Of a DNA stretch of 64,000 nucleotides, positions 1,112 through 63,994 are shown one piece after another. Under the pieces are notes generated by a model. That model saw nothing but the letters and a program-made list of their open reading frames with translations, was not told the DNA's origin and made no database searches. The DNA comes from a virus: IMG/VR virus record IMGVR_UViG_3300005096_000058, positions 1-64,000 of that record; one strand, 5' to 3'. The first letter of the stretch is position 1. Each line of letters begins with the position of its first letter. Both the position numbers and the translations under genes were made by a program.

Positions 1112-1627
1112 CTAAATTGAAAGGCCGGTCAGGCTTTGCTCGCCAGCGCGCCACACCCATTTGTGGAGATTTTCGCGTTTGGCCCGGAAGGCACCAACCA
1201 CACCTTTGCACGAGTGCGCGGCCTCCTTGAGCTCCTCCAGCAAACTGTTGATCACGGCGTATTCGGGATCACAGCGGTAGAGATCTTCAAGCTGGGCCGC
1301 GGTCACTTTTTTGCCCGTGGTGGGGTGCTCATCAGCGGCGTGGTCCAGACGGTACCTTGATTTCCAGACGGCGTATTTGCGCTCTTGGTATTGCACGACG
1401 CGTTCGCACTGCGCTTCCAGACGCGACCAATAAGCCACCTCAGCAGTCACGCGTTCGCACTGGCCCCCGAGGTCGTAGTCCAAAATAGAGACGGCGGTCA
1501 CAAGTGCTACCCCCTCGACGACAAGGTGCACGTCGAGCCCGTCCTGTCCGATGACATAAACCGTGAACGGGCGCATTGTCTGCAAAAACTGCATGTAGCC
1601 GCTTGTCGTCGTCACTGATCTGTTCAT
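1112..1627 (-). CDS. UvsY-like recombination mediator
   Basis: ATGA-coupled to the polymerase stop. Helical protein with AEVAYWSRL...TAAQLEDLYRCDPEY...AF..K..NL, as in UvsY-family proteins. Sits between polymerase and SSB. Confidence 0.55.
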   Translation of the reverse strand: MNRSVTTTSGYMQFLQTMRPFTVYVIGQDGLDVHLVVEGVALVTAVSILDYDLGGQCERVTAEVAYWSRLEAQCERVVQYQERKYAVWKSRYRLDHAADEHPTTGKKVTAAQLEDLYRCDPEYAVINSLLEELKEAAHSCKGVVGAFRAKRENLHKWVWRAGEQSLTGLSI

Positions 1628-3597: not shown

Positions 3598-3601
3598 GGC
3601 T

Positions 3602-5162: not shown

Positions 5163-5183
5163 GGTTGTTTTCTCCCTTTATTT

Positions 5184-6580: not shown

Positions 6581-6617
6581 AACATCCAGACGCCGAGCTC
6601 ATTATAAGGATCATCGA

Positions 6618-9316: not shown

Positions 9317-9393
9317 CGTGGGTTCCTTCGAAAAATATGCCCACCGCACCGGGAGCCAATGCGGGGGCGTTTAGGCTCCACTTGAAACAACAC

Positions 9394-13516: not shown

Positions 13517-15475
13517 CTAGGTACGCCACAAACGGAGGTAACGTGTTGCTCCGGGAATACGCACTGCAATGAACTCCGTTACAGCCACCAAAGTGACCGC
13601 GCCTCCTTCGGCCACGACCACGGTACCATCAACCGTAGTGAAGTTGGCCCAATAATCAGCGCCCGCTGCCGTCTGGAACTTCATAGCGGCGCCATTGCTC
13701 CACCGGGTAGTGGCAACGCCGTTATTCGTGGAGGGAGCGCTGAACCCGCCACCAGAACCGCCAAGGTCGAGGAATTCCGTGTTGACTTGCCCCCAATAAT
13801 TAGTGGCACCAAGCACTTGGCCACCATCAGTGGAGGGTTCAAACGTGCCGTCGATTTCTAAGGTCCCGGCCACGGTGTTGGTGACGCTCAATAGCGGCGT
13901 GCCTCCGGCCCCTTGGTACCAACTTAGGCGGGCGGAGGCCTCGGTGAACCGCACCTCCAACGCGGCGAACATGCCCCCCCAGGGGTCGACGTTACTTCCG
14001 ATCGTCTGGGTGTTGGTGTTTGGAAGTAACGTGTCACTTGCTCCGTTAATTCGGACGACGTGGAGCTCCCTGAAGAATCGGTTGATGCTCCCCAGGTCTA
14101 GCGAGTTGTGGACGCCGGGCACGAGGTCCGTGCGGACGCCTTGGTTGAGTCCGTTCGTGAGGTACAACGAGTCCGCATAGATGGCAGACCATCGGTTCCC
14201 TGTGAGGCCAAGCGTTGGGACACCAGCCGCAGGGTGCATGCCAGTAGAAACAATGTCGAGCACATCGGTGAATCCGGCGCGCACTCGAAACGTGTTGTTG
14301 ACCTCAAGCTGGGTGCGCCCTGCGTCTTGGAAGAGGATGATGTCTAAAAAGCCACCACCGCCACCTTGATCTATCAGGAAGATGCCGGTCAATCCGCCGG
14401 ACGCCGCCTGGTTCGCCAATGTGAGGCTTGGGCTGTTCTCGGATAGTAGGACATTGTCATTGAACGTCGAGGTCCCCCGCACCGTGAACATGCTGTCAAC
14501 CGTGAGATCGTCGAAAAACCCTGCGGCAAAACGGGAACCGCCGACGTCCAGTCCCAGCGAAGAGGCACCAATGGGCAGCACATCAGTGACCTCCAAGTTT
14601 TGGGTGTGCACCGTCCCCCAACGTTGAGCCACGTCGCCTAGATTGCGGTTCTGCCCTGTGGCATCGGGTTCAATGTCCCCGCGCATACGCGTGGGAACAC
14701 CGCTACTACCCACCAGCGGGAGCATCGCATCCAGGCTGCCGTTCACTGGGGCGTCCCACCACCGCTCGCCGATGATATTTGGGTTCCCTCCCGTCTGGAT
14801 TTCTTCCACTTTTTTCAGCAAAGCGTCGACGGCAGTGTGCAGGTCCCGCACACCATTGAGCGCACGATCTGCGTCCCGGTCTAAACCGCCGCCCCAACCG
14901 AGCGCGAAGCTGTTGTCCTCGTCGCCTTCAAAATAAAACTGACGCTGCTTTGTGATCAGGGTGATGAGCCCAGCTGCGACCGTAGCCTCGCCGATCTTAA
15001 ACCACTCGCCCCCGGGAGCACTCAAGGCAACACGTAGCCCCCAGTTGGCCGTGCGTTTGGTGGCGATATTTTGGGGAAACTCAACGTTTGCGTTGGGGTT
15101 CCAGAACACACGGTTTTGGAAGTCTCCTTGCTGAAACTGAAAGCGGATGTAGATGTTGTAAACGCCGTTGGCGAATGCGGACAAATCCTGAATGCGCTGG
15201 GTCTCGCCTTGCGTAACGACTGCACCATGCTCGATCACGCCTTTCTCACGGAACGAAAGGATGGCAGTGCCCCGAGTGACCCCGAGCTGACCTGACGGAC
15301 CAGCTACCACCGCCATGTCGAACCCGTCGACGATCCATGCTCGCTGGCCTGCTGGGTTCGTCAGAAAGTTGGCGGGGAGGTCTTGCGCATGTGTCGTAGG
15401 AGATTCTTGCGCGAGGAATTCAAAGTCCTCACGATCAACGCGTTCAAGATTATCAACACGTAGCTGGTCACGCAT
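13517..15475 (-). CDS. tail fibre protein
   Basis: Follows the baseplate genes; repeated P.......LG....RW units; Gly-rich. Confidence 0.7.
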   Translation of the reverse strand: MRDQLRVDNLERVDREDFEFLAQESPTTHAQDLPANFLTNPAGQRAWIVDGFDMAVVAGPSGQLGVTRGTAILSFREKGVIEHGAVVTQGETQRIQDLSAFANGVYNIYIRFQFQQGDFQNRVFWNPNANVEFPQNIATKRTANWGLRVALSAPGGEWFKIGEATVAAGLITLITKQRQFYFEGDEDNSFALGWGGGLDRDADRALNGVRDLHTAVDALLKKVEEIQTGGNPNIIGERWWDAPVNGSLDAMLPLVGSSGVPTRMRGDIEPDATGQNRNLGDVAQRWGTVHTQNLEVTDVLPIGASSLGLDVGGSRFAAGFFDDLTVDSMFTVRGTSTFNDNVLLSENSPSLTLANQAASGGLTGIFLIDQGGGGGFLDIILFQDAGRTQLEVNNTFRVRAGFTDVLDIVSTGMHPAAGVPTLGLTGNRWSAIYADSLYLTNGLNQGVRTDLVPGVHNSLDLGSINRFFRELHVVRINGASDTLLPNTNTQTIGSNVDPWGGMFAALEVRFTEASARLSWYQGAGGTPLLSVTNTVAGTLEIDGTFEPSTDGGQVLGATNYWGQVNTEFLDLGGSGGGFSAPSTNNGVATTRWSNGAAMKFQTAAGADYWANFTTVDGTVVVAEGGAVTLVAVTEFIAVRIPGATRYLRLWRT

Positions 15476-15484
15476 GGGACACCT

Positions 15485-17890: not shown

Positions 17891-17891
17891 T

Positions 17892-18614: not shown

Positions 18615-18618
18615 GGCG

Positions 18619-36416: not shown

Positions 36417-36641
36417 TTAGGCCGCCTGTGCGCGGATAAAGTCAACAAGTTGGCGCGCGTGAGGAAGGCTGACGCCCTCAATAGGAAAGTCGTCGTCCGG
36501 TCGTGCCTCGACCGCGTCGGCGAGCGCGATAAGATCCACCGCGTCACTCTCAGCAGCCACGTCCATACCCGCAATTGGGTTGAGGCGACGGCAGGCCGCG
36601 TTGATCAATTTCGTGAGCGTAGGATCGAAAACATTTTTCAT
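36417..36641 (-). CDS. acyl-carrier-protein-like small acidic protein lacking the phosphopantetheine Ser
   Basis: 74 aa; SDAVDLIALADAVE...DFPIE...ARQLVDFI aligns by eye with ACP ADSLDTVELVMALE...EIPDE...TVQAAIDYI. Confidence 0.5.
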   Translation of the reverse strand: MKNVFDPTLTKLINAACRRLNPIAGMDVAAESDAVDLIALADAVEARPDDDFPIEGVSLPHARQLVDFIRAQAA

Positions 36642-37894: not shown

Positions 37895-37895
37895 G

Positions 37896-40184: not shown

Positions 40185-40185
40185 G

Positions 40186-41004: not shown

Positions 41005-41009
41005 GGGAT

Positions 41010-42767: not shown

Positions 42768-42771
42768 TTTG

Positions 42772-48880: not shown

Positions 48881-49723
48881 TTAGAGCATTCCCTGCTCTG
48901 CCAAGGTGGTGAGCACGCCGTAAGCGTGCTCGACGAAAGACGCGTCGGCTCCGGGGAACCGCGCGCGAATGGTGGTGATCGCTACGCTTTTGCTCAGCTG
49001 CTCATCCTGTGTGGCAGCGAGATCTTTCTTGTCGCGTTCCAATGACTGCGGGGACAGGATGCGACCTGCGCCCTCCCCCGTTGTGGGGCCCTGTGAGCTC
49101 GGATGCGTGCCTGCGGGTGCGGCGGCCCCGGTGGTAGCCGTCATGGCCTTGCTTGCCTCTTCAGCAGCTTCCTCGTCGCCCTCTTCCACGGCTACCAGGC
49201 TCTTGGCTAGACATTCCAGACGAGTGCCATAGCCGACCGGGCAATTGGTGATCGCGGTGTGCTTCACGACTGCTTCAGCGATCGTCTTGTTGTTAGGGCC
49301 GGTGCGGCGGACCACGTCGCCCTCAATTGAGAAGCCCAAGCGGCGCTCATTGCCGGCTTTGGCGAAAGCCAGTCCCAGGTCCCAGATGCGATTTGCGCGT
49401 GGGGTGTCGAGCATCCAGCCTTCAGCCCAGGTGCCGTTCGTGGAGGCGGTCGCGCCATCTGGGAGGCGATCGCCCTTCTGGAACCTCCGCACCTCTGTGG
49501 GGTAACCAAGCGGGCTGTCTGTATCTTTGCTGTGGTTGTCGTTGAAGAACCCAGTCTCCAAGAACGGCTTGAAATTGAGTCCCCTCTGGATCACCACCTC
49601 GCCTTGCTTGTCGAGAATGTTTGTGGAGATCACGCCCGCAATCCTCCTCCGTTGCCCACGCGCGCCGTCCGCCTTCTCAAAAAAGGACAGAGGGGCGAAG
49701 AACTTGAAGGGGTTGCTGCCCAC
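48881..49723 (-). CDS. prohead protease (HK97/U35-like)
   Basis: I.G..ST...D.QGE, N.NH, LG.P, LGFSIEG, AIT.CPV. Confidence 0.85.
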   Translation of the reverse strand: MGSNPFKFFAPLSFFEKADGARGQRRRIAGVISTNILDKQGEVVIQRGLNFKPFLETGFFNDNHSKDTDSPLGYPTEVRRFQKGDRLPDGATASTNGTWAEGWMLDTPRANRIWDLGLAFAKAGNERRLGFSIEGDVVRRTGPNNKTIAEAVVKHTAITNCPVGYGTRLECLAKSLVAVEEGDEEAAEEASKAMTATTGAAAPAGTHPSSQGPTTGEGAGRILSPQSLERDKKDLAATQDEQLSKSVAITTIRARFPGADASFVEHAYGVLTTLAEQGML

Positions 49724-50090: not shown

Positions 50091-50440
50091 AGGATGTCCT
50101 GGAAGAGCTTGCCCAGATTCGTCTGGATGTCCGCTTCGTTCTCGGGCTTTGGAAAGATGGAGGGACGCCACGCGGGCGACAAGATCTTGTAGTAGCGATC
50201 CATCGTCGGCCAAAGAAGCGTCACCAAGCCACCCGCCGCAGGGAGTCGCACAATGCCCTCCTCTTCGTCGTCGAGGAAGTCAGGATGCTCGTCGAGGATA
50301 GGTAGCGTGACCGCCCCGTTACCTGGGATGTTCCTCAGATAGATGTCGCCCTGAGAGAAAAAAGGACGGACGACGTCAGTTAAGCGTCGATGAGGATTTG
50401 GGCGGCCGTCGAGGGCTAAATAGAAATGGTCGTATTTCAT
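50087..50440 (-). CDS. hypothetical protein coupled to the giant polyvalent protein
   Basis: ATGA overlap with the stop of the 2226-aa gene. Confidence 0.6.
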   Translation of the reverse strand: MKYDHFYLALDGRPNPHRRLTDVVRPFFSQGDIYLRNIPGNGAVTLPILDEHPDFLDDEEEGIVRLPAAGGLVTLLWPTMDRYYKILSPAWRPSIFPKPENEADIQTNLGKLFQDIL

Positions 50441-53400
50441 GGGGCAGGCACCTTCAAGCCTTTGCAGGCCTTGTTGATGGAGGCGTTATTCTGCGTTGGG
50501 CTGGTGAAGAAGAAATCAGCGACGGGGATGTTGTTGATCTCAGTCTTCCCCGCTGACGTCAGCGTCTCAATCAATCCAGATCTGACTTGGTCGGAAGCAC
50601 ACCACACACCTGCAATGTCCTCGTGTGCGACACCATGCTCAAACAAGACTTCATGGCTACTAGAATTCAAATTGAGTGTGTCAGGTTTTGACTTAGCCGG
50701 TGCTTGCGATCCGTAACCGTCGTGGTTGTGGGCCCAATAATCAGCCCGCTTCAGAATGCGAGGTCGATAGATATAGCGCACGGTAGAACCCGTATTGTAG
50801 CCATGCACACCGCTCGCCTGAGGACCACCTTTGCGTGCGATCCTCGTGAACACGCCTGCTGCGCCACCGGTATTCACGTCGGAGCCCGCCTGTGACGAGT
50901 AGGGTGCGGTGCCGGTTGTGTACCCCTGCTTCCGAGAGGGGACGCCAGTTTCTTGGAGCAGAAAGGCTGTGGCCGCACCGGGTGAATCGGCACCCGTGTG
51001 CACAAATTGCACGTCTTTGAGATCAGCATCGGTGATTTGATCAAATTCAACGGTGTGGGCGCCGCCCGCGCCCACCTTGATGCGGGCTGTGTCGACGTAC
51101 TTGTCGAATCCAGATTTCTTGAGTTGGGAGTCGAGCCAAACTTCGTTGTCGTAGTTTTTCCGAGAAGCGCCCCAGTAACCCTTAGCCCCTAACGAGTTTC
51201 GCACAAGCTGCGATTTGATGAATAGCCGCTCAGCTTGTCCATCATGCGCGCTGGCAGCTAGCGCGGGCGCGATTCCCGCCAGCTGCAAGCCTTGTTGAAG
51301 TTCCGTTTGCACATCTTTTGACGCGGGGATACGCGCAACGAAGCGGTTCCGCATCGCCAACCCCCCATGGGCTTCAGGGGCTAGATCGCCGTTGTGCGCC
51401 ACGCCTACGTAGGACCCCCCGTCCGTGAGCCCATCAAAACCAAACCAGCCCCCCTCAATGACGTTGTCTCCTTTTTTGTGGAGCCCAGTGTCCTCGTCAT
51501 ATACGTCGTACACCGCCCCACCAGCTTCATCCGTGGTGGAGGTGTATTTGATCTTCCCTTTAGAAAGCTTGGATTTCTGCGGGTTGAAATTAAGCAGGTC
51601 GCCCGTGACCTCAAAGAAATCCTCGCCGTCTGGATTCGCAACACGGCGGACGCTGATCTGGCTGTTGATCCAGAGTCCCGCGCCGCCATGCCTAATCGTG
51701 TGACCCCAATGCCCCATCTTGATCGCATCGAGAGCACCGAGGTCAGCCTCGTTGTTGATGGCAAGCTCGCCTTGCTTCTGCGGCCCAAGAGCAAACGGGG
51801 GGGCCGACTGCGCAAAAGCAGGAGGCAGATCGGGAAGCTTGGGCGTAGTCACCGTCGTGGTTTCCACCGCGACGTCAAGGTCCGCTTTTGTCACGGTGAA
51901 CACCGTGTTGGTGGCCACCATGGGCTCGCCGTGAACAGTGATGCTCTTGTCTGCAAGATATTGTTTGGCGGCTGCTTGCGCCTCGTTGGTAATCCCGCCG
52001 AATTTGATGACAATTTTATCACTGTCCGTGTCGTGCGGCTTGATCTTTTTAGGCTTCCCGAGGCCCTCTTCCGAAAACCCAGACACGAAATCAGCGACCA
52101 CCTCATGTTTGACTGTTTTGGTGGTCACTTCCGTCTGCTCAAACGTGGTGCCCGCAGGGTAGTCAACGTTGTCTGGACCCTTGATCGTTTGCGTGCCTGG
52201 GAAGCGGTTGGCGAGTTCGTCCTTGCTCACGCCGAGCATGTCCCCAAGAGGAGAGGTTACGTCCGTCGACGGGGGCATACTTTGCCAGTTGGCCACCGCC
52301 TCTTTGAACTTCGCTGAATCCTTGCCGGCAATCAGGAAGTTACCTTCCCCATCGTCGTGCACGTGCAGCCCACCCTCGTAGCCCAGGCCAGCTAGCTTCT
52401 CCTGCAAGAAGGACAGGGTGAGGAGGTCCGAAGCCTTGTTGGATTGGGGGTGGGACTTCACCCAAGCTGCCCACGCCTTGGCCTTCTTCACTTTTTCAGA
52501 GTCAACACTTGGTTTTTTTACCGTCGGCGCGAGAGGTTTAGGTTTCTTCTTCTTTTTGACCGGGTCACCAGGCCACTGCACAGAAGCACCACCGGCCTCC
52601 TGAATCATCGAGGCCGCTTTTTTGGCGGTGAACCCCTCGCTGAGGGTGACGCCCTGTTTGTTCGTGACGCTGAACATGGGGTTCAACGCATTGGCTCCTG
52701 GACCGAGTGAGCTAAGCGTTTCCCCCCACTTGGTGTGTAGCTTCACGCCTGCCGGGAGGGCGTAAATCTTATCTATGACCGTCGTCAGTTTCAAATTGGA
52801 AGGAAGTGACTTCAGTTTCTTCTTGCCAGCGTCTGGACCCGGGGAATCGAGGTCGGCATGGTCTACATACGGAGGCTGTGCAGCCGACTCAGCCACTGTG
52901 GTTTCGGCGGCGTACAGTTTGGAGGAAACGTCGGCGTCTGTGGGTACGTCGGCCCACGCACCGCTGCTAGGCCCGGGCCCAAAGAATTCGACTTCCCAAT
53001 CGAGCGCGTGGTCAGCTAGAAACGACGCTAGGGCCTCTGTAGGGGCCGCGCTCAAACCTTGTTTCGCATAACAATACAGTGAGTCATCTTCTAAATTAAA
53101 TTCAGCCGCATATTTCTCTTGCACAGACGCGAGCGCGACGTACTCGGCTAGCGGTAGTTTGTCGACGACGACTTTGTTCTTCTGCTCCGGTGGGATGTCC
53201 TGCGGGTGAACGCCGATCGCTTCACCTGCGGTGGGCAAAGCCTTGTACGTAGCAAACGAAACGTCTTGAGGGAAAGACGCATCAACGAGTTTGAATGCCG
53301 CCTTCACCTCGGCAATTGTCAGATTATAGATACCCATGAGATCTGCGAGCGCGTAATCCAATGCGAGAGCGGACGACGACGACTCAGCCCCATGGACAAT

Positions 53401-56400
53401 CTTTCCATCCTCGTCGATCGCCACAAACTTCAGTGTCGGCGAAGCGTCTCCGTCCTCGCCGTACCCGGTCGCCGATGGGGTGATCCAGATCTTCTCACCG
53501 TGCAGCACCCCTTCGAGCCAAACACCCATCGGAGGCACCCACGACGCCCAATGCGGGGATTTCATCCCGAAAGTCTTGTTGGGCTTGCCCGGGACAGGTA
53601 ATCCAGACAGCTTGGTGGCATTGCTCCAGACAACATCTTTGTCGGGGAAATCTGGCAGCGCTTCCTTTGTCGTGACCACGGTGGGTCCGATGTCCCCTGT
53701 GATGCTCGGGGTGGCTGGCTCCGGGTCAAGGTTGGGCGGACCTCCTGCGAGGAGCAGCTCCAAGGTGGTTGGATCTTTGGCCTCGACGGGTTGGCCGCCC
53801 TTGAGGTCGACGGACCACTCAACCGACTCAGAAGAGAGCCATTCCGCCGTGTAAACCATGTCCAGCTTGGGGTTCAGCCACTTACCTTGCGGGAAGTCTT
53901 TGTGGCTTATTTTCGTGAAGGTGTCTATTCCGTCGTTGATCTCAGCGTCAACGGGGAGCGCGTCTAGCTCAGCCACCGTGAGGGGCTTGGTCCCCGACGT
54001 GTCTGGAGATCCGGGCTGGTCCTCGATACTCAGCGCATGTTCGATCATGTCGCTGACTGTGTAGCTGGCACCGCTGATGGTCTGGAAAGCTCCAGACAGC
54101 TGCTTCTTGTATTGGTAGCCCGCCACGTCCTTCAGCACCGTGCCAAAAACCAAAGCTTTAAGCTGTGCTGCGGTGGGCACCTTCGATCCCTGCCACGCGA
54201 GAGAACTCGGGGGTGGTGGCGGCTCACCGATTGAATTCACCTTCAGACCACCAAAGCCCGAAGCGGCGTCCTCAGCAACGTCCGCACTCAACTCTGTGGC
54301 AGTGAGTGCTGTAGTCATCGACCCACCCATAGGCTTCCACCCGTCAGGGTGTTTGACCCAGCCCTCACCCTCAGGGTCAGAGTTGGGGAAGGGCTTAGCG
54401 ACCGGGTCGCCATAACCCAGCACAGAGCCTATGGGGAGCTCGTCGAGCTCATCCGCGGTGGGACTCTTCCAACCATCCCAGCCAGGTTCTCCGGGTGGCT
54501 GTAGGGCTGCTTCCGCCGTGGTCGCGATGACGTTGGCGAACTCCATGAACTCGCCCGTCTTGGGCTTCACACCGAAGAACTTCCAGCCGCCTCCTGAAGC
54601 GATCTTCGTTTTGCCCGTCTTGGCTTTGTAATCGGCTTTGCCGAGATAGCCCTTCTGGACGAGCCAAACGTGATCACTGGCCGCGCTCAGGCTTTTGTGT
54701 TTGGTGACGTCGTCGCCCTTTGGGGCCTTGATCGTGACCTCAAATCCCTCCTCCAAAACTTCCAGCTGCACCTTGAGTTCCCCGAGGTGATCAAAAGGCT
54801 TGGTGAGCTCGTGCTTATGACCAATAGGGAGGGGACCACCCTTCTTCGGGTATTTCACCTCTTTGGGCGTCTGGACTTTCTTAGCTGCGGGGGTCACTTC
54901 AGCTTGAGGCGCTGGACCTGCCGGGAGCGGCTTTGGCTTTGGTTGCTTGGCGGTTTGCGTCGCCTTGGCGGCAGCAACTACCGACGGGAGAGCGAGGACG
55001 GACTTCAAACTTTGGGATGCAGGGTGCGTTGACCCGAAGACCACGGGGACACCAGTTGAGGGCACTGTGACGTTTTTGAGCAGCGGGGCACCGCCTTCGG
55101 CGGCCTGATGGACGACCCAGATGTCGAACGTTCCATCCGCGCTGAGAATTTTGATGACGCTGCCAGGCAGAGGGAGCGTTTTTGGCCAATCATGCGGGAC
55201 GGATATTGCAGCATGCTCCATCGCGAACGTCAGGGCCGCTGGGGGAATGAGCGTGGAGTCGGTGACGATCCCATCTTCAACCGCGGCCAGCATCTCGTGC
55301 AGCGTGATCTCTTTCTTCTCGGGGGCTAGGCCCAGCTCAGCCATGAGTTCGTCAGCGCTCATGCTCCCGATCGTTGGCTCCGATGTGGTGCCTGCGGCCT
55401 GGAACTCCCCTTCAAATTGCTTCAGCGCGAAAAGCTTGGTGGCCGGGTAGGCGATGCCTTTGGCTTTCTTTTCCGTCGAACCCATGTCTAGAGGCAAACC
55501 CTTGTTGAACAGCTGCGTGCTGTCCGCAGCCGCTGCGGGGGAGGGGTAGATCTTTGTGGTCCCGTTGGGGAAAAGCACTGCGATCGCAGGCTTCCCATCG
55601 ACGGAATCAAAGCCAAACTCAAAAACGTTGCCCGCCATCTTAACCGCGGCCTGGTATCCGGGGCCGGGGTATTTGGTGGGCCAGCCGGGGGGATGCTCAC
55701 CACCAGGGGCGTGCACAGTCACGTTCCCCTTGGTGACGGGCCAGCCGGGTGTCTGGACGAAGTCGACGATCTTCTCGGTCTTATCCTCGACGGGGGTGAT
55801 CGCAGGCTCATCTGCGGCTGACGGGATCGTGACTTTGTCCCCCGTCATCTCAGAGAGGAATGTCTCCCAGTTGCTGCGGAGATCTTTGAACCGCTTCTCA
55901 ATCAGCGCCCATTTTTTCTTCGGCTCAAAGTCTTCCAGACCCTGCGCGGCGTCTTCCAGATAGGGGGCCACGATGCTGTGGTACTGCTCCACGGACAGGT
56001 TCTTCTCGATACTGAGCAACACCTCCGTGACAGCTTTGATGGGGTCGCCTTTGATTTCCCCGTTTTGGAAGAGCTTCCACATTGCATTGTACGCGGGAGA
56101 ACTCGCGTTCAATTTATAGCTGGTGCTGAGCTTGTCTGCGCCGATCGCTTTGAACGCTTGGCCTTTATCAATAGCGGCGAGGTCACCACCGAGCGTCTCG
56201 ACGAAGTTGGCCCCGTGGCTATCGTGGTTGGACATCATCCAATCCAGCACTTGGTGCTGCACTAGCCGCTCAAAATGTTTTTGAAGCTTGGCTTTAGTGG
56301 TCCCGTGATCACCACTGACCTCGTTGCCGATGGTACCTTTATTGTCGACCCACGACAGGAGCACCCCTTGGTCGCCAGCGTGCTCAATCATCTCCGCGTC

Positions 56401-57117
56401 TGGATATAGACCCTCCTTGGGGAAGACGAGAGAAGCCACTCGGTTGAACGCCTCTTCAGCACGGCTCACCCAAGTTTGACCTCCGTTGGTTTTCCAGGCG
56501 TACTGGTTCCCATTTTTGTCCTCGACGATCTTACCGCCGTGGCTGCCCCCCAGGTTTCCCTTGAGTTTGAGCGTCGCAAGCAAGCTGTCTGGAAACGGAG
56601 GATCAGCGTCAGCCCCCGAGGCCCCTTTGGCCGACCACGCGGTGATCTCGTGCGGAGGGGGCACCAACGGTTCCCCAACGTGCTGCCAAAGTTCAGACGC
56701 TTTGAACTTGACCAAGCCGCCGATGCCAGCGGACTTGAGCCCGGGGAAAGAAGCCAGCAACAGCTGGGCGTCGCTGGCGCTGACGACGAAGATGCCTGCA
56801 AAACCCCCACCTTTCGATTGGATGCCCACGTCCTCTAACCACTCCCAAATTTGAGAGGCATGATCGGAGTCTTTTGGGTGGAGAGGTGGCGCGCCCTTGG
56901 TGGCCTTGGCCGCGTCTTTTTTGGCTTTGAGCTTCTTGGCGGCAGAGGACCCACCGTAGACCGGTTTGCCGTGCACCCAACCGACGATCTTGCCCCCTTT
57001 GGGGCCGATCGCCAGCACGACCATGCCGTTCGCAAACCCGAGCTTGGGCTTGGGCGTCTTAGCTTTTACGGCCTTGGAAAGGGCCGCAGGTTGGATTGCT
57101 AGCGCCGTCTGGAACAT
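50437..57117 (-). CDS. 2226-aa polyvalent protein: HipA/PI3K-like kinase, two DUF2924/RAMA-like domains, C-terminal ART-like domain
   Basis: Kinase motifs LGGSHG...YAWK...AE...DW..SNHDSHGANF...AIDKG; KHKSLSAAS...GWKFFGV; C-terminal VHTG...GVFTR...HEVLF. Confidence 0.65.
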   Translation of the reverse strand: MFQTALAIQPAALSKAVKAKTPKPKLGFANGMVVLAIGPKGGKIVGWVHGKPVYGGSSAAKKLKAKKDAAKATKGAPPLHPKDSDHASQIWEWLEDVGIQSKGGGFAGIFVVSASDAQLLLASFPGLKSAGIGGLVKFKASELWQHVGEPLVPPPHEITAWSAKGASGADADPPFPDSLLATLKLKGNLGGSHGGKIVEDKNGNQYAWKTNGGQTWVSRAEEAFNRVASLVFPKEGLYPDAEMIEHAGDQGVLLSWVDNKGTIGNEVSGDHGTTKAKLQKHFERLVQHQVLDWMMSNHDSHGANFVETLGGDLAAIDKGQAFKAIGADKLSTSYKLNASSPAYNAMWKLFQNGEIKGDPIKAVTEVLLSIEKNLSVEQYHSIVAPYLEDAAQGLEDFEPKKKWALIEKRFKDLRSNWETFLSEMTGDKVTIPSAADEPAITPVEDKTEKIVDFVQTPGWPVTKGNVTVHAPGGEHPPGWPTKYPGPGYQAAVKMAGNVFEFGFDSVDGKPAIAVLFPNGTTKIYPSPAAAADSTQLFNKGLPLDMGSTEKKAKGIAYPATKLFALKQFEGEFQAAGTTSEPTIGSMSADELMAELGLAPEKKEITLHEMLAAVEDGIVTDSTLIPPAALTFAMEHAAISVPHDWPKTLPLPGSVIKILSADGTFDIWVVHQAAEGGAPLLKNVTVPSTGVPVVFGSTHPASQSLKSVLALPSVVAAAKATQTAKQPKPKPLPAGPAPQAEVTPAAKKVQTPKEVKYPKKGGPLPIGHKHELTKPFDHLGELKVQLEVLEEGFEVTIKAPKGDDVTKHKSLSAASDHVWLVQKGYLGKADYKAKTGKTKIASGGGWKFFGVKPKTGEFMEFANVIATTAEAALQPPGEPGWDGWKSPTADELDELPIGSVLGYGDPVAKPFPNSDPEGEGWVKHPDGWKPMGGSMTTALTATELSADVAEDAASGFGGLKVNSIGEPPPPPSSLAWQGSKVPTAAQLKALVFGTVLKDVAGYQYKKQLSGAFQTISGASYTVSDMIEHALSIEDQPGSPDTSGTKPLTVAELDALPVDAEINDGIDTFTKISHKDFPQGKWLNPKLDMVYTAEWLSSESVEWSVDLKGGQPVEAKDPTTLELLLAGGPPNLDPEPATPSITGDIGPTVVTTKEALPDFPDKDVVWSNATKLSGLPVPGKPNKTFGMKSPHWASWVPPMGVWLEGVLHGEKIWITPSATGYGEDGDASPTLKFVAIDEDGKIVHGAESSSSALALDYALADLMGIYNLTIAEVKAAFKLVDASFPQDVSFATYKALPTAGEAIGVHPQDIPPEQKNKVVVDKLPLAEYVALASVQEKYAAEFNLEDDSLYCYAKQGLSAAPTEALASFLADHALDWEVEFFGPGPSSGAWADVPTDADVSSKLYAAETTVAESAAQPPYVDHADLDSPGPDAGKKKLKSLPSNLKLTTVIDKIYALPAGVKLHTKWGETLSSLGPGANALNPMFSVTNKQGVTLSEGFTAKKAASMIQEAGGASVQWPGDPVKKKKKPKPLAPTVKKPSVDSEKVKKAKAWAAWVKSHPQSNKASDLLTLSFLQEKLAGLGYEGGLHVHDDGEGNFLIAGKDSAKFKEAVANWQSMPPSTDVTSPLGDMLGVSKDELANRFPGTQTIKGPDNVDYPAGTTFEQTEVTTKTVKHEVVADFVSGFSEEGLGKPKKIKPHDTDSDKIVIKFGGITNEAQAAAKQYLADKSITVHGEPMVATNTVFTVTKADLDVAVETTTVTTPKLPDLPPAFAQSAPPFALGPQKQGELAINNEADLGALDAIKMGHWGHTIRHGGAGLWINSQISVRRVANPDGEDFFEVTGDLLNFNPQKSKLSKGKIKYTSTTDEAGGAVYDVYDEDTGLHKKGDNVIEGGWFGFDGLTDGGSYVGVAHNGDLAPEAHGGLAMRNRFVARIPASKDVQTELQQGLQLAGIAPALAASAHDGQAERLFIKSQLVRNSLGAKGYWGASRKNYDNEVWLDSQLKKSGFDKYVDTARIKVGAGGAHTVEFDQITDADLKDVQFVHTGADSPGAATAFLLQETGVPSRKQGYTTGTAPYSSQAGSDVNTGGAAGVFTRIARKGGPQASGVHGYNTGSTVRYIYRPRILKRADYWAHNHDGYGSQAPAKSKPDTLNLNSSSHEVLFEHGVAHEDIAGVWCASDQVRSGLIETLTSAGKTEINNIPVADFFFTSPTQNNASINKACKGLKVPAP

Positions 57118-57149: not shown

Positions 57150-57428
57150 CTACTGGACAACGTAGAGCTCAACCGCTTTTTTCTGTGGAGCGCCGAAGCT
57201 TTTAGCCAAGGCGGATTCAAGGTCGGCAGCGTCAGGGAGCGCGTGCCTGGCCGCGAGCTCGCCGTCTGCACGGATGTCGTAGAACGTCCCCGTGAGCTCG
57301 GGGCTGTTACGCTCGATCTCCAGGTTGCGCTTTCCAGACACCCAAGCCCGCGCGTACGCGCCAAGCACTTGCATACCAAAGTCCGTGAACGATCCGTCTG
57401 CGTTTTCAGTTGGTAAGGTCATAGCCAA
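57150..57428 (-). CDS. hypothetical protein
   Basis: Small ORF between the polyvalent genes; contains LAKS. Confidence 0.5.
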   Translation of the reverse strand: MAMTLPTENADGSFTDFGMQVLGAYARAWVSGKRNLEIERNSPELTGTFYDIRADGELAARHALPDAADLESALAKSFGAPQKKAVELYVVQ

Positions 57429-59914
57429 CTCTTTTCATCTTCCAGTTCGAGTAGGTGGGTGACGGGGCTGTCTTCACCTAAAAATTTCACAGCCACCGCT
57501 AAACGTTCCTCGTCGTCGGTAGCATTTCCCCAGGCGGACCATCCTTCCTCACCCATCTGCTCATCAGGAATGACTACAATAGGGACAGACACACCGGCCG
57601 CCTTGGCCGCAGCAACTCTATGCGAACCGGTCCAAGCGTCTGGGCGGACAGGATCGCCAGAAACCACGACGGGGGCGCCCACAAATTCACCTTGGGCGCG
57701 GAAGCGGCGCTCAATCGATTTTAATTTGTCCTGGTCGCGTACCTCGTGGAGGGGGTTGATCCGACTAGCTTGTATACTGCGCTGGCGCCTAATTGCGTGG
57801 CCTTTTAGATTCGAAAAATCAGCTGTATCTTTCGTATAGGGGATCGTGTGCTGTGGGTCGGCCCACTTGCCCCCTCGCGGTCCCAAGAACAAAGCCTTGT
57901 CTAGTAGATCGTCGCCACTCTTAGTGCCGAGGTCAATCGGTTTGCGTTCCTCGTCGTTCTCAATGATCCGCGCTGAATCATCTTCGATGGGCCAACGGGG
58001 CCTGCCCTCTTGCTGCGTCGGGTGCCACTGGCCTTCGGGCTGACGGACAGCGCCGCGGTTGGTAGGTACGTCGCGCATCTGGAAACTGATCCGCGCCACC
58101 TCACGCTTGTGCTCTTCCGCGCGGTTCTCCGTCTCGTCGGGTGTGATGATGTTCTTGGTGTTCTTGTAGGCATCGGCGATCGCGTAAATCTGCGTGTCGA
58201 CACCCGCCCCAAAAACATAGATGCTGGGGTCGCGGCGGACGATGACATCGCCATGATGTTGCGCCCCTTGGAGGTATTCGCGGACACCTGCGACGTCATG
58301 AGGGTTGTGCGGCTTGGCCGGTAGCTCGGCCTGAATGTTGACCCCGCCGCCGCTGCCTTCTTTGAGGATGAACTGCCCGCCGCCAACGGCGAAAGCTGTA
58401 CCGCTCACACCCTCGACGTAGGGGACACCCTTCCGCATGAGGGTCACCGCTCGTCTGCGGATCTTAGGCCGAATTGTGAACCGCGCGTCTGGACGGAGAG
58501 GAGGAGGCACCGGCTCCACGTAGTTGGGGTTGGGCACCACGAACTCAGGGGTGGCTTTTGACAACTTGCGCGGGTTGGCCAACGTGGTGGTGAGCTTGTC
58601 TTTGAGCTTGCCCACGCTCATCGTCGTCATGCTTCCGAAAAAACCTTCGTCATCGTAGTTGGCGAGATAGGCCGCTTTGGCCTCCCCTGCCGACGAAAAA
58701 CCAAGCATAACCTTGTCCTCGTCGTAGCCCTCAAACTTCCCCTCTAAGGTGCGCTTGCGTTGGTGCACGACGTACGCCTTCGATGCAAGGGGGTTGGGTC
58801 CGACGAAGCAATCGACGTGATCACCGTCGACACCAAGCGTGCGCCGGATGTAGCCGTAGGGCCAAAGCATCACGCTGGCCCCTGAAGTCTTGTTCTTGTG
58901 GTCCTTCCAAAAGCGCAGTCCACCCGCGCCGTTCTCGATGGCGATGTCCATGCCTTGGAATTGCAGCTCCCCGTCCAGACGGTACGCCTTCACCAGCGCG
59001 TCCATATGCTGGTCTTCTGCTCGCAGCGCTTTCTCCACGTCGTCAGCAGCACCCTCGTACTCAACACCAAACTCGCCGCCTGGCACCATCGTACCATCTT
59101 CGTCGTAGCCCCATCCTGCGGGGACGCGAACAGCCTGGCACTGGCAATTGGGATGAATTGAGCCAATGCTTGGTACCCAGTCCGCTGCTTTCTTCCCCAC
59201 GTTGGACCCGGGGGCGCCCAACTGAGACAGCTTGAAGATGATCGGGGCACCGTCGGGGCCTAAACTCAATCTGAGGCAGTGTTTGCAGGCGTCGGGCATG
59301 GCGATCAGAGAGACCCGGGCGTCCTCACCATATTGTTTGCGGAAACCGTCGGCGACGCCTTCCTGCATGACGTTGTGCTTCTCCGTGACGGCAATGCGGT
59401 CGAGGTTGCGGGTCCAGTCCTGCATGGCGTGCCCGAGCTTGCTCTTGAGCGTACCCACCGTGCTGCGGCTAGCCACATTCTCAGAGGTGCTCGTCTGGAT
59501 GTCAGCTTGAAGTTTTTTGCGCTGGGCCTGGTCAGCTTCGATCAGGAGCTTGCCCGTCTGGATGTCGATCGTGTTCCCCAGCCCCTGCACGTACTGGGCG
59601 GCATTGATCTTAGCCGTCTGGATGGCCTGCTCCTCGACGGCAGACAATGGGATGGGGTTTTTGGCGAGTTCAGCCTTGACCTTGTCGAGGTCCCAGGTAG
59701 GCATATTTGGATCTTGAAGCTTGGCCACCAGCTGGCCGTAGGTGTACGCGGTTTCAAATAGATCTTCGTGGCCCTCTAGCAGCCCCGCGCTCTTCAGATC
59801 AGCCACAACTCCAGCCGGAATAGCAGTCGGACCAAAGACGTCGACGACAAAAGCAGCGTTGTGCTTCTGGATGACCTCCTTCACCAACTGCATGAGTTCC
59901 GGGGTGAGCTTCAT
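57419..59914 (-). CDS. MuF-like minor head protein fused to InPase-like and ParB-like domains
   Basis: RIA.TE...AC..C...HPNCQC (MuF); IEN..G..R...YGYI..T.G.DGD.VD.F.G...DE.KVMLGF (InPase); P.VV....GSHR.AAA...G (ParB/Srx); ATGA-coupled start. Confidence 0.8.
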   Translation of the reverse strand: MKLTPELMQLVKEVIQKHNAAFVVDVFGPTAIPAGVVADLKSAGLLEGHEDLFETAYTYGQLVAKLQDPNMPTWDLDKVKAELAKNPIPLSAVEEQAIQTAKINAAQYVQGLGNTIDIQTGKLLIEADQAQRKKLQADIQTSTSENVASRSTVGTLKSKLGHAMQDWTRNLDRIAVTEKHNVMQEGVADGFRKQYGEDARVSLIAMPDACKHCLRLSLGPDGAPIIFKLSQLGAPGSNVGKKAADWVPSIGSIHPNCQCQAVRVPAGWGYDEDGTMVPGGEFGVEYEGAADDVEKALRAEDQHMDALVKAYRLDGELQFQGMDIAIENGAGGLRFWKDHKNKTSGASVMLWPYGYIRRTLGVDGDHVDCFVGPNPLASKAYVVHQRKRTLEGKFEGYDEDKVMLGFSSAGEAKAAYLANYDDEGFFGSMTTMSVGKLKDKLTTTLANPRKLSKATPEFVVPNPNYVEPVPPPLRPDARFTIRPKIRRRAVTLMRKGVPYVEGVSGTAFAVGGGQFILKEGSGGGVNIQAELPAKPHNPHDVAGVREYLQGAQHHGDVIVRRDPSIYVFGAGVDTQIYAIADAYKNTKNIITPDETENRAEEHKREVARISFQMRDVPTNRGAVRQPEGQWHPTQQEGRPRWPIEDDSARIIENDEERKPIDLGTKSGDDLLDKALFLGPRGGKWADPQHTIPYTKDTADFSNLKGHAIRRQRSIQASRINPLHEVRDQDKLKSIERRFRAQGEFVGAPVVVSGDPVRPDAWTGSHRVAAAKAAGVSVPIVVIPDEQMGEEGWSAWGNATDDEERLAVAVKFLGEDSPVTHLLELEDEKSWL

Positions 59915-60339
59915 CCCAGGCGGCCACGCGGCGTTGGGCACGTGATGGCCCGGTCGTGGTCAAGCGGGAACGCCTTGAGCACGATCTTCGGCTTACTAAA
60001 AAAGAACTCACGGATGCGCTGCTTGAGAGGTGGTCGGTACGCGGGCAGACCGGAAGCGATGCGGTGGTGCTCATCAAGGGTGTTAAACATGGGCGCCTGC
60101 TTAATGTCACGCCAGAACTCCACGTGCTCCATCTTAAAACTGACGCTGCGTAGCGTCAGCTCCAACGGCTCCGCGCGCCAGCCCACGCCTTGGGGGGGTA
60201 ACGTGAGCGCCTCAAGTACCTCACCATGTGTCAACCGCGTGACCGGCTTGTACCCGAGGTCCAGGTTAGCTGCGAGCATGGCACCAGCAATACCAATACC
60301 AAGCTTCTTAAAGAATCCGCGACGTGTATCTGACATCAT
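59911..60339 (-). CDS. hypothetical protein with twin-arginine (Tat) signal-like N-terminus
   Basis: TRRGFFKKLGIGIAGAMLAA; ATGA overlaps at both ends. Confidence 0.55.
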   Translation of the reverse strand: MMSDTRRGFFKKLGIGIAGAMLAANLDLGYKPVTRLTHGEVLEALTLPPQGVGWRAEPLELTLRSVSFKMEHVEFWRDIKQAPMFNTLDEHHRIASGLPAYRPPLKQRIREFFFSKPKIVLKAFPLDHDRAITCPTPRGRLG

Positions 60340-61195: not shown

Positions 61196-61204
61196 GACGC
61201 CCTC

Positions 61205-63994
61205 CTATAGGTCGAGGTCGATGCTCACAATACCCGGCACCGCCGCTGGTGTCCCCTGCCCCCCCAAAGCCTGTGAGGACCAGCTGCCTTTGCCGAATGG
61301 ATTTCCTCCCCCAGACGAGCCCTTCTTGGCTTCCTCATCGGAGGTGGCAGCTGCGCCGTCCTCAGCATCTGCTGCGTTCTCGTTTTGGATGCCATCGAGT
61401 TCACCACCGAATGCGGCGTCCGTGCCGTCGTCCTCCGCAAAGTCTCCGGTGCCCATCTCCTGCTGCGCCGCCATCGTCTTGTTTTGCATCCAGACAGCGT
61501 GGAGAATGACTTGCCCCTCTCCGTCTGGAAGCGGCGGGAGATCTTCCTCGGCACGCACCTCGTCGACCATCTTGTACGATGTCACCTGCTTTGTATTGAG
61601 GTCAGCGAGCTCGTCTGGGGTTTGCGCGTCCAGACCGACAAAAGCGAATTCGAAATCTTCGTCGATGCGGTGAACGAGGAAGGAGGACAACCGGTGCTGG
61701 ATAAATCGGAGAAGGGGCTGCAGCCCTTTGTCTTTGGACTGCGCCAGCTTTTGCTTGTTGCTCGACTCAAACATCGAGCCGCCGCTGCCCCCGCTGTCCC
61801 CATATTTGAAGTTGATCTCCATCGGATCCATGCCGTAGATCGCGCACGCCACCTTGATCAGGAAATCAAACCACGCGCTGAATTCCATGTCGCGGTTGGA
61901 TTGCTGCAGGTTGATGTATTGGAGCTCCTCCGCATTTGTGATCGGAGTTTTGAATGCGTTCTCGACGCCAGCGACCATCGAATACCAATGACGGCGAAAA
62001 GCGCGCAGCTGTTTCTCAGGCACGGCACCTTTGAAGTTGATGATGCCTTTGGTCGACGTGCCTTGGCTGTTGTGCACGGCCATGTGGTTGAGCACGAACA
62101 GGTGCTCGTCGTTGAAAACCTCGACATCGAACATCTCACGATCTTCGTCGGCGTGACCAACAACCTCAACCGGCACCTGTAGGTAGCGCAGCCACGCGGG
62201 CTCCTCAGCACCGAGGCGTTGCAGAAGGTGGATTGCGTAGGCGCGGCTCATCGTCACGCGTCCCCCCGACGCTTTGCGGGCCATGTCGCGCTCCGCAACA
62301 GAGAGGGACTTGTAGTTGTCGTGCTTCCAGACGTGCGTACCAAGGTTGCGGCTCAAGTGCGGGTGCAACCGGTCCCAGCGATCGCGCTGAGCAGGACTGC
62401 GTTCAATCCCCTCGTTTTTGTACGCCTGCAAATAACCCACGGACGACGTGAAAGAGGCGATGTCCTGCACGGTGATGGTACCGTGTCGGCTCGCAGCTGT
62501 GCCTCCACCCACAAGGTTTGAAGCCACGCCCACCGACCACAAACACTTGAGGATGTCCTGCGCCAGAGCCGGATCGGAGGAATGCACGCTTGGGGTACGG
62601 TAACCTGTGGCGTGTGTGGCGGTGCAGCCATCAGCACTGAAGATGCCGCGGAGCAAAGCGGCACGGATGTGCGCTGGCTGGCGGTAGACACTTTCAGGGA
62701 TGCGCTTACCCTCACGAGACGGGCGGAAACCAATGTCACGCAGCCAGCGGTGGAACGCTGTGTGGCATATTTGCAACGCTGGGTAACCAAACTCGCCATC
62801 GCTACGCTCGATGGTTTTGTTGATCACACGGTCGGTGCAATGAATACCATGCCTCACGCAAACAGCCTTAAACCGTTCGAAGAGATCAGCATCACGAGAA
62901 TAGTGCGGGAAGACTTGCAACCAGCTGGGGGTGTCTCGCCCTTCATCGGGGAAGTACCCATCACCTAGCGCGAAGCCCATGAACTCCCAAAATTCAGGGT
63001 CCTCAATGAGCGCTTTCGTGGGGCGGAAGTCGCGTCCTGTTTTTCGATCGGTGTCGTAAACGCGGTCGACGAGGAGGGTCTCATAATCGAATTCAGGGTC
63101 GGAGCGCTCATAGCTGACCAAGGCGAAATCGCCGGCCTGCAAGTCTTCTTGGCGGACCCATTCGGGATCACCATCACGGGAGCTCGCTGGGATCACGCGG
63201 TACCTATGGTCGGGACTGGTGGTGAGCTCCAGCCCATTCCACAATGTGGTGACCGCGGTGACCTTCTTGCCTGTGGGGAAAGCGCGCGCCTCCCCCCAAG
63301 TGCCTGGGCCAGTGCTGGCCACGAAGTTTTTTCCAGACAGATCCCTCAAAGGGATCAACCCTTCTGATGTGGTCACCAGCCCGTCGCCATCCGCACAAAA
63401 GAATTTCTGATTATAGTCCCATGACCAAAGTAACGACGTCACCGTCGAGATCAACATCTCTGTTTCGGCAATCCCGTACCCTTGGTTTCGGATGTCCGTG
63501 ACCGGATTGCGAACACCAAAACACATCTGATCAGCGCCATATTCGGCTGTGACCAGGCCGTCGTAGATCTGGACGTAGCGGGTCTCTTCGGGTGTGCCTT
63601 GGTAGTAAAGCTTGGTTGTGTCCGCGATGCGCAGCGTGGCGCCGTCAACGGCGTAGAAGTCGTAAGGCTTGTCACCACGATCTTCCCGCACCTCGAAACC
63701 CAGTTGGTCATAGGTCAATGCGTCGCGCACGATCTTGCGCAAGAACGTCTCAAAATTGTCGCGAGCATTGGGTGTGCCGCGGTCGTTGACCTTGCCCGTT
63801 GTCATCACCCAGTTGGTGATCTCTTTGCTCTTCTTTTCGCTGGCCTTAGAGGGGGAAGCCTTGCGATCACGCAACTGGATGCGAAAGCCTGTCTGGAACT
63901 TGTCCTCCTGCGGCAGACTGAAATTGGCCATCTGGTCGGTGCGCGTCTTGATGATCGCCTGGATGATCGGCATGCGGAAGACCATCGCCGACAA
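61205..63994 (-). CDS. portal protein (probably 5'-truncated by the window) containing an intein
   Basis: FLRKIVRD.LTYDQ..FE, AVDGATLR, RNP.TD....GYG..E.E, YNQKFF/SQG...KGI, DMEF..W, SKDKGL.PLL; frame is open to the window edge. Confidence 0.9.
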   Translation of the reverse strand: MSAMVFRMPIIQAIIKTRTDQMANFSLPQEDKFQTGFRIQLRDRKASPSKASEKKSKEITNWVMTTGKVNDRGTPNARDNFETFLRKIVRDALTYDQLGFEVREDRGDKPYDFYAVDGATLRIADTTKLYYQGTPEETRYVQIYDGLVTAEYGADQMCFGVRNPVTDIRNQGYGIAETEMLISTVTSLLWSWDYNQKFFCADGDGLVTTSEGLIPLRDLSGKNFVASTGPGTWGEARAFPTGKKVTAVTTLWNGLELTTSPDHRYRVIPASSRDGDPEWVRQEDLQAGDFALVSYERSDPEFDYETLLVDRVYDTDRKTGRDFRPTKALIEDPEFWEFMGFALGDGYFPDEGRDTPSWLQVFPHYSRDADLFERFKAVCVRHGIHCTDRVINKTIERSDGEFGYPALQICHTAFHRWLRDIGFRPSREGKRIPESVYRQPAHIRAALLRGIFSADGCTATHATGYRTPSVHSSDPALAQDILKCLWSVGVASNLVGGGTAASRHGTITVQDIASFTSSVGYLQAYKNEGIERSPAQRDRWDRLHPHLSRNLGTHVWKHDNYKSLSVAERDMARKASGGRVTMSRAYAIHLLQRLGAEEPAWLRYLQVPVEVVGHADEDREMFDVEVFNDEHLFVLNHMAVHNSQGTSTKGIINFKGAVPEKQLRAFRRHWYSMVAGVENAFKTPITNAEELQYINLQQSNRDMEFSAWFDFLIKVACAIYGMDPMEINFKYGDSGGSGGSMFESSNKQKLAQSKDKGLQPLLRFIQHRLSSFLVHRIDEDFEFAFVGLDAQTPDELADLNTKQVTSYKMVDEVRAEEDLPPLPDGEGQVILHAVWMQNKTMAAQQEMGTGDFAEDDGTDAAFGGELDGIQNENAADAEDGAAATSDEEAKKGSSGGGNPFGKGSWSSQALGGQGTPAAVPGIVSIDLDL
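62069..63397 (-). mobile_element. intein with LAGLIDADG homing endonuclease (443 aa) in the portal
   Basis: Starts at Cys (CADGDGLV), block B TTSPDH, endonuclease motifs GFALGDG and LRGIFSADG, ends MFDVEV...VHN followed by Ser; removal restores YNQKFF-SQGTSTKG. Confidence 0.92.

Follow-up and report, generated by a model that had tools for sequence, protein, structure and literature searches.

An asymmetric 8-nucleotide word, YGTCTGGA, is written about once every 600 bases into the genome of an uncultured phage, where it is kept at the level of the DNA itself. We analysed the first 64,000 nucleotides (the window) of the IMG/VR virus record IMGVR_UViG_3300005096_000058, a single contig of 110,147 bp that we call G000, together with the rest of that contig and its metagenomic relatives. 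The related phages carry lineage-specific dialects of a common TCYGGA core, and something phage-encoded therefore appears to read its own genome. We are much more confident that some phage-encoded process acts sequence-specifically on the DNA than we are in naming its reader, for which a domain of a giant protein encoded among the head genes is the best candidate.

Abundance, distribution and form of the word

The window contained 103 copies of YGTCTGGA, whereas dinucleotide shuffles yielded 4.8 ± 2.0 copies with a maximum of 10. The exact count by form was 76 with C and 27 with T at position 1, in agreement with the roughly 75 and 28 counted by hand in a preliminary description of this DNA. 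Across the whole of G000 there were 183 copies (1.66/kb), 91 on the plus and 92 on the minus strand, while the minus strand carries nearly all genes; the word is thus present on both strands despite one-strand genes, as that description had stated. It had also placed the word in every reading frame, and all six frame/orientation classes were occupied, with 11-41 sites each. Non-coding copies numbered 13 of 183, and non-coding DNA makes up 7.6% of G000, indicating no preference for either kind of sequence.

Exactly eight positions of the word were informative, with the flanks at background, and an extended consensus of 10-12 nt with conserved flanks, like that of a DNA uptake sequence (DUS), was not found in it. 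Position 1 was C more often than T. Position 2 was G, with A and T each enriched about 7-fold and C excluded. The following TCTGG was strict, position 8 was A, one-off variants of the core were depleted, and the exact word was enriched about 25-fold.

Even spacing along G000 was not found: distances between sites were Poisson-like (mean 589 bp, coefficient of variation 1.06), and two of them reached about 4.5 kb. Orientation polarity of the type seen with Chi, KOPS (FtsK-orienting polar sequences) or origins was absent, both orientations being mixed in every tenth of eight genomes. The array and its gaps lie as follows.

1344..63897, both strands: 103 YGTCTGGA/TCCAGACR sites forming the array, in the local dialect of the TCYGGA core found across the clade
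14800..19347, no strand: motif-free gap of 4.5 kb over conserved tail/baseplate genes
36043..40290 (also given as 36035-40291), no strand: motif-free gap of 4.3 kb inside a block (35.6-44.8 kb) without a counterpart in the close relative G001

The first gap is not conserved, because the homologous region of G001 has sites. The block around the second (about 9 kb, 35601-44800) contained 8 sites where 15.3 were expected (P 0.03), and it has the look of DNA acquired recently, into which the word has not yet been "written".

The word is a signal at the DNA level

When synonymous codons were shuffled within each gene, with the protein and its codon usage kept, the 172 copies in coding sequence fell to 22.0 ± 4.3, and when whole codons were shuffled within each gene they fell to 8.3 ± 2.8. 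The difference between these two nulls shows that the proteins themselves lean toward motif-compatible peptides; the tripeptides VQT, IQT and FQT were 3-4x above expectation in G000 proteins. At positions where the peptide would allow it, the word was present in 171 of 354 cases (48%), against 19 (5%) expected from codon usage. Markov models had been suggested earlier as a check; those of order 5-6 did reproduce the count, but they did so only through sub-words that the motif itself supplies. A codon or peptide artefact is ruled out by the codon-aware shuffles, by the saturation of compatible positions and by the synonymous-site retention reported below, and the earlier view that codon or amino-acid bias is insufficient held under the protein- and codon-preserving shuffle. 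The word is a DNA-level signal, to which codon choice and even the choice of amino acids give way.

Conservation in a close relative

Synonymous-site conservation, also proposed earlier, was assessed in G001, an IMG/VR contig of 106.8 kb whose polymerase and head protein are 78% and 90% identical to those of G000. The two genomes are collinear but permuted, with about 71% nucleotide identity over 53 kb. G001 carried 191 copies of YGTCTGGA (93/98 on the two strands) against 9 of the reversed control. Within aligned blocks, 47 of 87 G000 sites were still the motif in G001, compared with 10% identity for any aligned 8-mer, and C and T interchanged at position 1 of the conserved sites. At places with identical peptides, 30 of 39 motif 8-mers (77%) were kept versus 21% of other 8-mers (p ~1e-13). 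About half of the aligned sites were private to one genome or the other, so sites are both maintained and turned over.

Dialects of a TCYGGA core across the clade

The head protein has more than 580 metagenomic relatives, many on contigs of 95-110 kb. We sampled 80 loci (L numbers) and, in addition to G000, 15 whole or large contigs (G numbers). The dialects found share a TCYGGA core, examples being TTTCTGGAA, TTCTGGA and the palindromic TTCCGGAA.

G000 and G001: Y-G-TCTGGA
G002 and G004: TT-TCTGGA-A
G006: TT-TCTGGA-T
G012 and G023: T-TCTGGA
G022: TCTGGA-AAA
G003 (the TTCCGGAA phage): palindromic T-TCCGGA-A, 364 sites
G005: TCCGGA (319 sites) together with TCTGGA (128 sites)

Core density was 2-6 per kb and the strands were used about 50:50 in every dialect, across whole genomes of 52-67% GC and, with loci included, 35-68% GC. 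Palindromic dialects occurred in G003 and G005 only. The L178 contig, which has 35% GC and just 34% identity in the head protein, was enriched in TCCGGA, and a TCYGGA-type word was absent from the relatives G008, G009, G013, G014 and G015. In G007 the CTGGA excess was strand-biased (312/488) and lay within GAG-CTG-GA codon strings, and is therefore probably codon-driven. Secondary 9-mers of G003, G005, G006 and G007 were strongly strand-biased, which marks them as another kind of word.

Other repeated words were seen in the same material. G015 (L141-L146), which has no TCYGGA word, carried GGATAATG-type repeats, including 15 copies of AGGATAATG (10/5 by strand), and L089, likewise without the word, carried 28 copies of AATTGTCG. 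G000 itself had a second strand-symmetric word, AAGCCTTGT, in 29 copies (18 plus, 11 minus) against about 1 expected. Sixteen of them lay in the window, from 3594 to 57892 (for example at 3594, 7475, 10046, 26427, 43409 and 51287), inside unrelated genes, in several frames and with no common flanks. G001 had no copy, and the aligned positions differed at 2-8 of 9 bases, often synonymously. AAGCCTTGT has the appearance of a young counterpart to the main word that is specific to G000, and its restriction to G000 suggests that such words can arise quickly.

The word is a trait of phage DNA

Relatives from the clade were binned with metagenome-assembled genomes (MAGs) of many phyla, Gemmatimonadota and Campylobacterota included. 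In a Gemmatimonadaceae MAG the word was clustered in two phage contigs (about 1.5/kb versus about 0.04/kb elsewhere), and in a Sulfuricurvum MAG the phage contig carried about 1.9/kb versus 0.17/kb overall. Among 301 evenly sampled Pseudomonadota, the densest genome reached 0.17 YGTCTGGA/kb and none exceeded about 5x its control. The word is a phage trait and not a property of the bacteria sampled.

A domain of a giant, putative virion protein is the candidate reader

Every G000 protein of at least 60 amino acids (aa) was searched by jackhmmer profile against all open reading frames of 16 genomes. The only G000 family present in 7 of 7 complete motif-rich genomes (and two partial ones) and in 0 of 6 motif-poor genomes was a protein of 2226 aa, within which one segment stood out.

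50437..57117, minus strand: gene of the 2226-aa protein, flanked by the MuF-like/portal genes on one side and by the prohead protease/major head genes on the other
55393..55800, minus strand: candidate reader domain (aa 440-575), a clade-restricted alpha+beta domain of about 110 aa
54490..54930, minus strand: second, diverged copy of the domain (residues ~745-860), 32% identity over 88 aa, pairwise E 0.008

The gene position is that of injected "polyvalent" virion proteins, from which packaging in the virion may be supposed. The protein gave no usable match in Pfam (E<=0.01), PHROGs or PDB sequences, and no described polyvalent domain was detected in it. The candidate domain contains a conserved basic T-E-K-K-K-K-G loop. 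An otherwise unrelated 1978-aa protein of G003 shares only these ~110 aa (G000 residues ~453-565, E 1e-36), placed in the G003 chain between a PAPS (phosphoadenosine phosphosulfate)-reductase-like and a DdrB-ParB domain, both DNA-associated; such an architecture is typical of phage polyvalent proteins. DdrB-type ParB domains in giant proteins were located at 82849-88785 in G003 (L103:2849-8785), ~94280-94684 in G005 and ~69131-69538 in G006.

A hidden Markov model of the domain matched 12 enriched loci and 0 unenriched ones, and two contigs selected only by the domain proved to be enriched in the word 4x and 5.7x. The domain was present in 62 of 1.84 billion cluster representatives, nearly all of them proteins of 2000-3100 aa with the domain at an equal relative position. 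The subtype of the second copy was found in motif-poor relatives too. In the head-protein tree, enriched rows with the domain were scattered beside unenriched sisters without it, supported branches forced at least 7 changes of enrichment, and the raw two-by-two table of domain against enrichment read 13/0/7/45.

PDB sequence profiles did not recognise the domain. Its predicted model was confident (predicted local distance difference test score, pLDDT, 84) and resembled FYR (2wzo) over the whole domain, with Z 12.2, a root-mean-square deviation of 3.0 Å and 112 aa aligned, the next match having Z 5.4; Foldseek gave probability 1.00, TM (template modelling) scores of 0.60/0.57 and E 0.01. Two RAMA domains, 7ydt (Z 5.4, 74 aa) and 6pbd (Z 4.6, 69 aa), ranked 2 and 6 of 48,161 chains, at values within the noise range of the aligner. 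These two, from MPND and the CcrM C-terminus respectively, are the only solved RAMA domains, and both bind double-stranded DNA (PMC9963953).

The preliminary description had named DUF2924/RAMA-like domains, a ParB-like domain and a ribbon-helix-helix protein as possible readers. The first suggestion survived in part: one segment (aa ~453-565) does track strong enrichment, whereas its RAMA fold match is weak and searches for DUF2924 (PF11149), RAMA (PF18755) and FYRN/FYRC found none in 12 domain sequences even at E<=10 in Pfam. The other two were not borne out. The PF02195 and PF18763 models found no ParB-like domain in G000, PF02195 (ParB_N) being likewise absent from G001, G002, G003 and G005, and no ribbon-helix-helix protein was located among the profiled proteins of at least 60 aa.

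Further candidates were set aside. A 140-aa protein of the replication module (8927-9349) seemed to correlate with the word by tblastn, and profile search then found it in the motif-poor G007 and G009 and not in G006. G003 and G005 do encode DdrB-ParB, a conceivable reader of TCCGGA, yet so does G006 without any TCCGGA enrichment, and the TCCGGA-rich L178 MAG lacks it. Ten further small proteins of the window matched no Pfam family.

Proposed explanation and alternatives

We propose, tentatively and at rather less than an even chance, that the YGTCTGGA array is read by a phage-encoded reader, most plausibly the FYR/RAMA-like domain of the putative 2226-aa virion protein. The TCYGGA word would be kept at the DNA level as a dense, orientation-free array of recognition sites. 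The 2226-aa protein would be packaged in the head, possibly with cleavage by the head protease, and would enter the cell with the DNA, where its domain would hold the protein, or co-injected enzymatic parts, on the phage's own genome as an escort, a tether or a self-mark. Co-evolution of reader and word would then give rise to the dialects. The word with its statistics, conservation, dialects and restriction to phage DNA is established, as is its co-occurrence with the domain. We hold the full chain of steps no more firmly than this because DNA binding, packaging, processing and any benefit are all inferred. The preliminary description had suggested binding sites for a phage protein: its premise of a DNA-level signal is now extended to the whole lineage, and reading by a phage factor is probable.

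Several observations weigh against this proposal. Independent contrasts between domain and enrichment numbered 3 on well-supported branches and 6 on all branches, none of them contrary (sign test p 0.25), and with only 3-6 contrasts the domain is a candidate reader and not a shown one. Seven enriched rows had no detected domain, and it was not found in 30 further contigs and MAGs. Among these were the 63 kb of G017 (59% complete), which carries the TTTCTGGA word, the complete G007, which has about 3x TCTGGA (partly codon-like), and the TCCGGA-rich L178 MAG. FYR, the strongest fold match, has no DNA-binding role that we know of. The RAMA similarity is at the level of aligner noise, and known RAMA domains bind DNA without sequence specificity (PMC9963953). 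The Poisson-like spacing and the two large gaps give no sign of selection for even coverage, and it is not obvious why a few dozen copies of a packaged protein should call for 180-500 sites.

A doubtful but serious possibility is self-marking by sequence instead of base modification, in which a co-injected virion protein would read the word as a cis-acting "self" label and either tether effectors to the DNA or shield it. Reader and word would diverge together into dialects (TCCGGA, TCTGGA and variants of the flanks), and a word might appear or be lost quickly, as AAGCCTTGT in G000 alone suggests.

It is unlikely that the word has spread by molecular drive without benefit, through a phage-encoded, motif-biased repair or recombination process that converts near-matches into the word. 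Such a process might be mismatch correction of the VSP (very short patch) or HIP1 type, or biased gene conversion in heavy, T4-like recombination of co-infecting genomes; the word would be a mutational sink, as the preliminary description had also suggested, and the dialects would follow changes of enzyme specificity. The depletion of one-off TCTGG variants beside the enriched exact word, the Poisson-like spacing, the indifference to coding, the fast turnover that left about half of the aligned sites private, the appearance of AAGCCTTGT in G000 alone and the scarcity of sites in the block without a G001 counterpart all fit it. G000 encodes RecA/UvsX-, Rad50- and Mre11-like proteins, but recombination genes are common to the motif-poor relatives. 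No candidate enzyme was found for the drive: the word is tracked by none of the C5, D12 and N6/N4 methyltransferase families, and a Vsr-type enzyme was not searched for. The strong synonymous-site retention fits selection, though a continuing drive gives the same result, and the co-occurrence with a putative virion protein would be left unexplained.

We regard as improbable that the sites serve a core DNA transaction common to all relatives, such as primase initiation, hot spots of recombination or replication restart, or packaging pauses, with a sequence requirement whose strictness differs between lineages. Motif-rich and motif-poor genomes equally possess the genes for primase, helicase, polymerase and recombination, and neither even spacing nor a switch of orientation was seen along any genome. 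Forks running either way, as in recombination-dependent replication, would need sites on both strands, and on each strand the sites recur every ~1.2 kb, close to the size of an Okazaki fragment. The word also contains GTC and CTG, the trinucleotides of the T7 and E. coli DnaG-type primases, and G000 encodes a DnaG-like primase and a DnaB-like helicase at 5492-8090; GTC is, however, not kept among the dialects, and with the palindromic TTCCGGAA a symmetric binder is a better fit than a primase.

A host-dependent signal, namely an uptake sequence, a Chi-like RecBCD/AddAB signal or a nucleoid-protein site with dialects that track hosts, is very improbable. The same core recurs in phages of 35-68% GC binned with MAGs of Gemmatimonadota and Campylobacterota among others, phage contigs within MAGs reach ~1.5-1.9/kb against 0.04-0.17/kb, none of the 301 Pseudomonadota comes near the phage density (G000 is ~10x the densest), and neither Chi/KOPS polarity nor a 10-12-nt consensus was present. 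For such a signal speak CGTCTGGA and TGTCTGGA, which are one base off the 3' eight bases of known Neisseria DUS dialects, and the G000-only second word, which could reflect a change of host. The comparison covered co-binned MAGs of relatives and the 301 Pseudomonadota, and it weakens the idea rather than closing it.

Least probable of all is a target of phage DNA modification (C5, Dam-like or another base modification) whose sites were selected as useful; a DNA-modification target was among the suggestions of the preliminary description. Searches for C5, D12 and N6/N4 methyltransferases (PF00145, PF02086, PF01555) found none in the complete, motif-rich G002-G006 and G012. Among the relatives searched, the C5 enzyme occurred in G000 and G001 only, D12 enzymes in G000, G001, G022 and, weakly, G009, and N6/N4 enzymes only in the motif-poor G008, G013 and G014. 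The three families thus do not track the word, and a phage methyltransferase target was rejected as its general cause. The G000 enzymes are as follows.

76192-77238 of the genome (L166:12192-13238): C5-cytosine methyltransferase
97547-98383 of the genome (L167:13547-14383): Dam-like (D12) methyltransferase

That G000 and G001, which have the YGTCTGGA dialect in common, both encode C5 and D12 enzymes is in favour of modification, as are the fusion of the shared G003 domain to a PAPS-reductase-like (DndC/IbrA-type) domain and the link of HIP1 to orphan methyltransferases in cyanobacteria (PMC4390886). On the other side, TCCGGA, one transition from TCTGGA, was counted 0 times in G000 against 42 expected (both strands). 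It was also at zero in G007, G008, G015 and G022 and hyper-abundant in G003 and G005, and TTCGAA, ACCGGT, CCCGGG, TCGCGA and CTGGAG were at zero in individual relatives. These zero-count palindromes are classical restriction-site avoidance, which argues against a general protective modification, and the advantage of more targets is not evident.

Genome context and other features

G000 has 58.5% GC, and its ends overlap by 91 bp, as expected of a circular assembly. Within this terminal overlap a ~15-nt repeat (minus-strand sequence CAGCCCCAACAAGGC; window 32-79, genome 110088-110135) occurred twice, at a distance of 33 bp. The replication and tail genes include a family A polymerase, the DnaB-like helicase and DnaG-like primase, and a baseplate J protein. 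A near-DNA search found no DNA match to cultured phages. The polymerase is ~28% identical to known polymerases, and the closest cultured head proteins, at ~38% identity, are those of SPO1-like Herelleviridae; the clade consists of uncultured, SPO1-distant myoviruses of 35-68% GC. The genes around the giant protein are as follows.

46670..48106, minus strand: major head protein, the phylogenetic marker of the clade
48881..49723, minus strand: head maturation protease, a context gene for which processing of the giant protein is a possibility only
57419..59941, minus strand: MuF-like minor head protein with an InPase domain, part of the virion-module context

The portal gene (61205-64246, running past the window end) contained an intein that includes a LAGLIDADG homing-endonuclease domain. 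Among the early genes, a 12-bp palindrome containing AGACATATGTC occurred in four intergenic copies, at genome positions 74322, 76165, 78870 and 96392 (L166:10322, L166:12165, L166:14870 and L167:12392), and is possibly an operator or promoter element. An ADP-ribosylglycohydrolase (E 9e-63; genome 98492-99529, L167:14492-15529) was found only in some motif-rich relatives (G001, G002, G006, G012 and G022).

Significance and comparison with known systems

If a phage lineage keeps hundreds of copies of a private word, with enough force to bend its codon and amino-acid usage, an unrecognised process reads phage DNA sequence-specifically and genome-wide. Its identification would add a principle to phage biology, be it self-marking, genome escort or selfish sequence drive, and would assign a function, for the first time, to a domain of the enigmatic giant injected virion proteins. 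A strong compositional signal able to mislead codon-usage, host-prediction and binning methods would also be explained. The dialects provide a natural experiment, in which reader and word could be swapped between relatives.

The preliminary description knew of no phage system with this motif, and the literature gave no cause to disagree: searches on the literal sequence returned primer noise, and searches on the concept returned HIP1 papers only. Stoperators of the mycobacteriophage L5 type are 13-bp sites present in ~20-30 copies, mostly intergenic and oriented with transcription. They resemble the word as numerous asymmetric, genome-wide sites for a phage DNA-binding protein with cluster-specific variants; here, in contrast, there are 180-500 copies, mostly in genes (170 of 183 in G000), with no orientation rule. 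Chi and KOPS are also over-represented 8-mers, read by DNA-translocating machines, and phages can be Chi-enriched, but these signals show a strong orientation skew and are enriched few-fold, whereas the word is 50:50 in every tenth of each genome and enriched ~25-40-fold.

We know of no polyvalent protein that reads a dedicated word array on its own genome. The giant chain lies, as those proteins do, beside MuF and portal genes, and the clade carries DdrB-ParB and InPase domains, whereas the G000 protein matches no described domain by sequence. According to one proposal, polyvalent virion proteins and the P1 Dar system are packaged and processed, and on injection protect or jump-start the DNA in cis (PMC5512222), and DdrB-ParB is listed as specific to phage polyvalent proteins (Iyer et al. 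2017, PMC5512222). The likeness to FYR and RAMA is one of predicted fold, full-length for FYR and weak for the two solved RAMA domains, both among the top six matches, and the candidate domain has no membership of either at the sequence level.

HIP1 (GCGATCGC) of cyanobacteria is an 8-mer over-represented 15-300-fold at synonymous sites in genes; its function is unknown after decades, and selection has been inferred from its conservation (PMC5861425, PMC4390886). The phage word is likewise an over-represented 8-mer written into genes at synonymous sites, with conservation that suggests selection. HIP1 is, however, a palindrome of cellular genomes tied to orphan methyltransferases, whereas the phage word is asymmetric and viral, and methyltransferases do not track it. 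The DUS of Neisseriaceae and the uptake signal sequences (USS) of Pasteurellaceae have 10-12 informative positions, against 8 here, and fill the chromosomes of competent bacteria, whereas the G000 word is a phage trait, ~10x denser than in any sampled bacterium and without a link to terminator pairs. They share with it a short, non-palindromic form, a frequency of about 1/kb on both strands and inside genes, and lineage dialects around a conserved core, and their upkeep is attributed to a protein that reads the sequence specifically, together with recombination. The TCYGGA word would thus offer a tractable viral counterpart to the unsolved problems of HIP1 and the uptake sequences.

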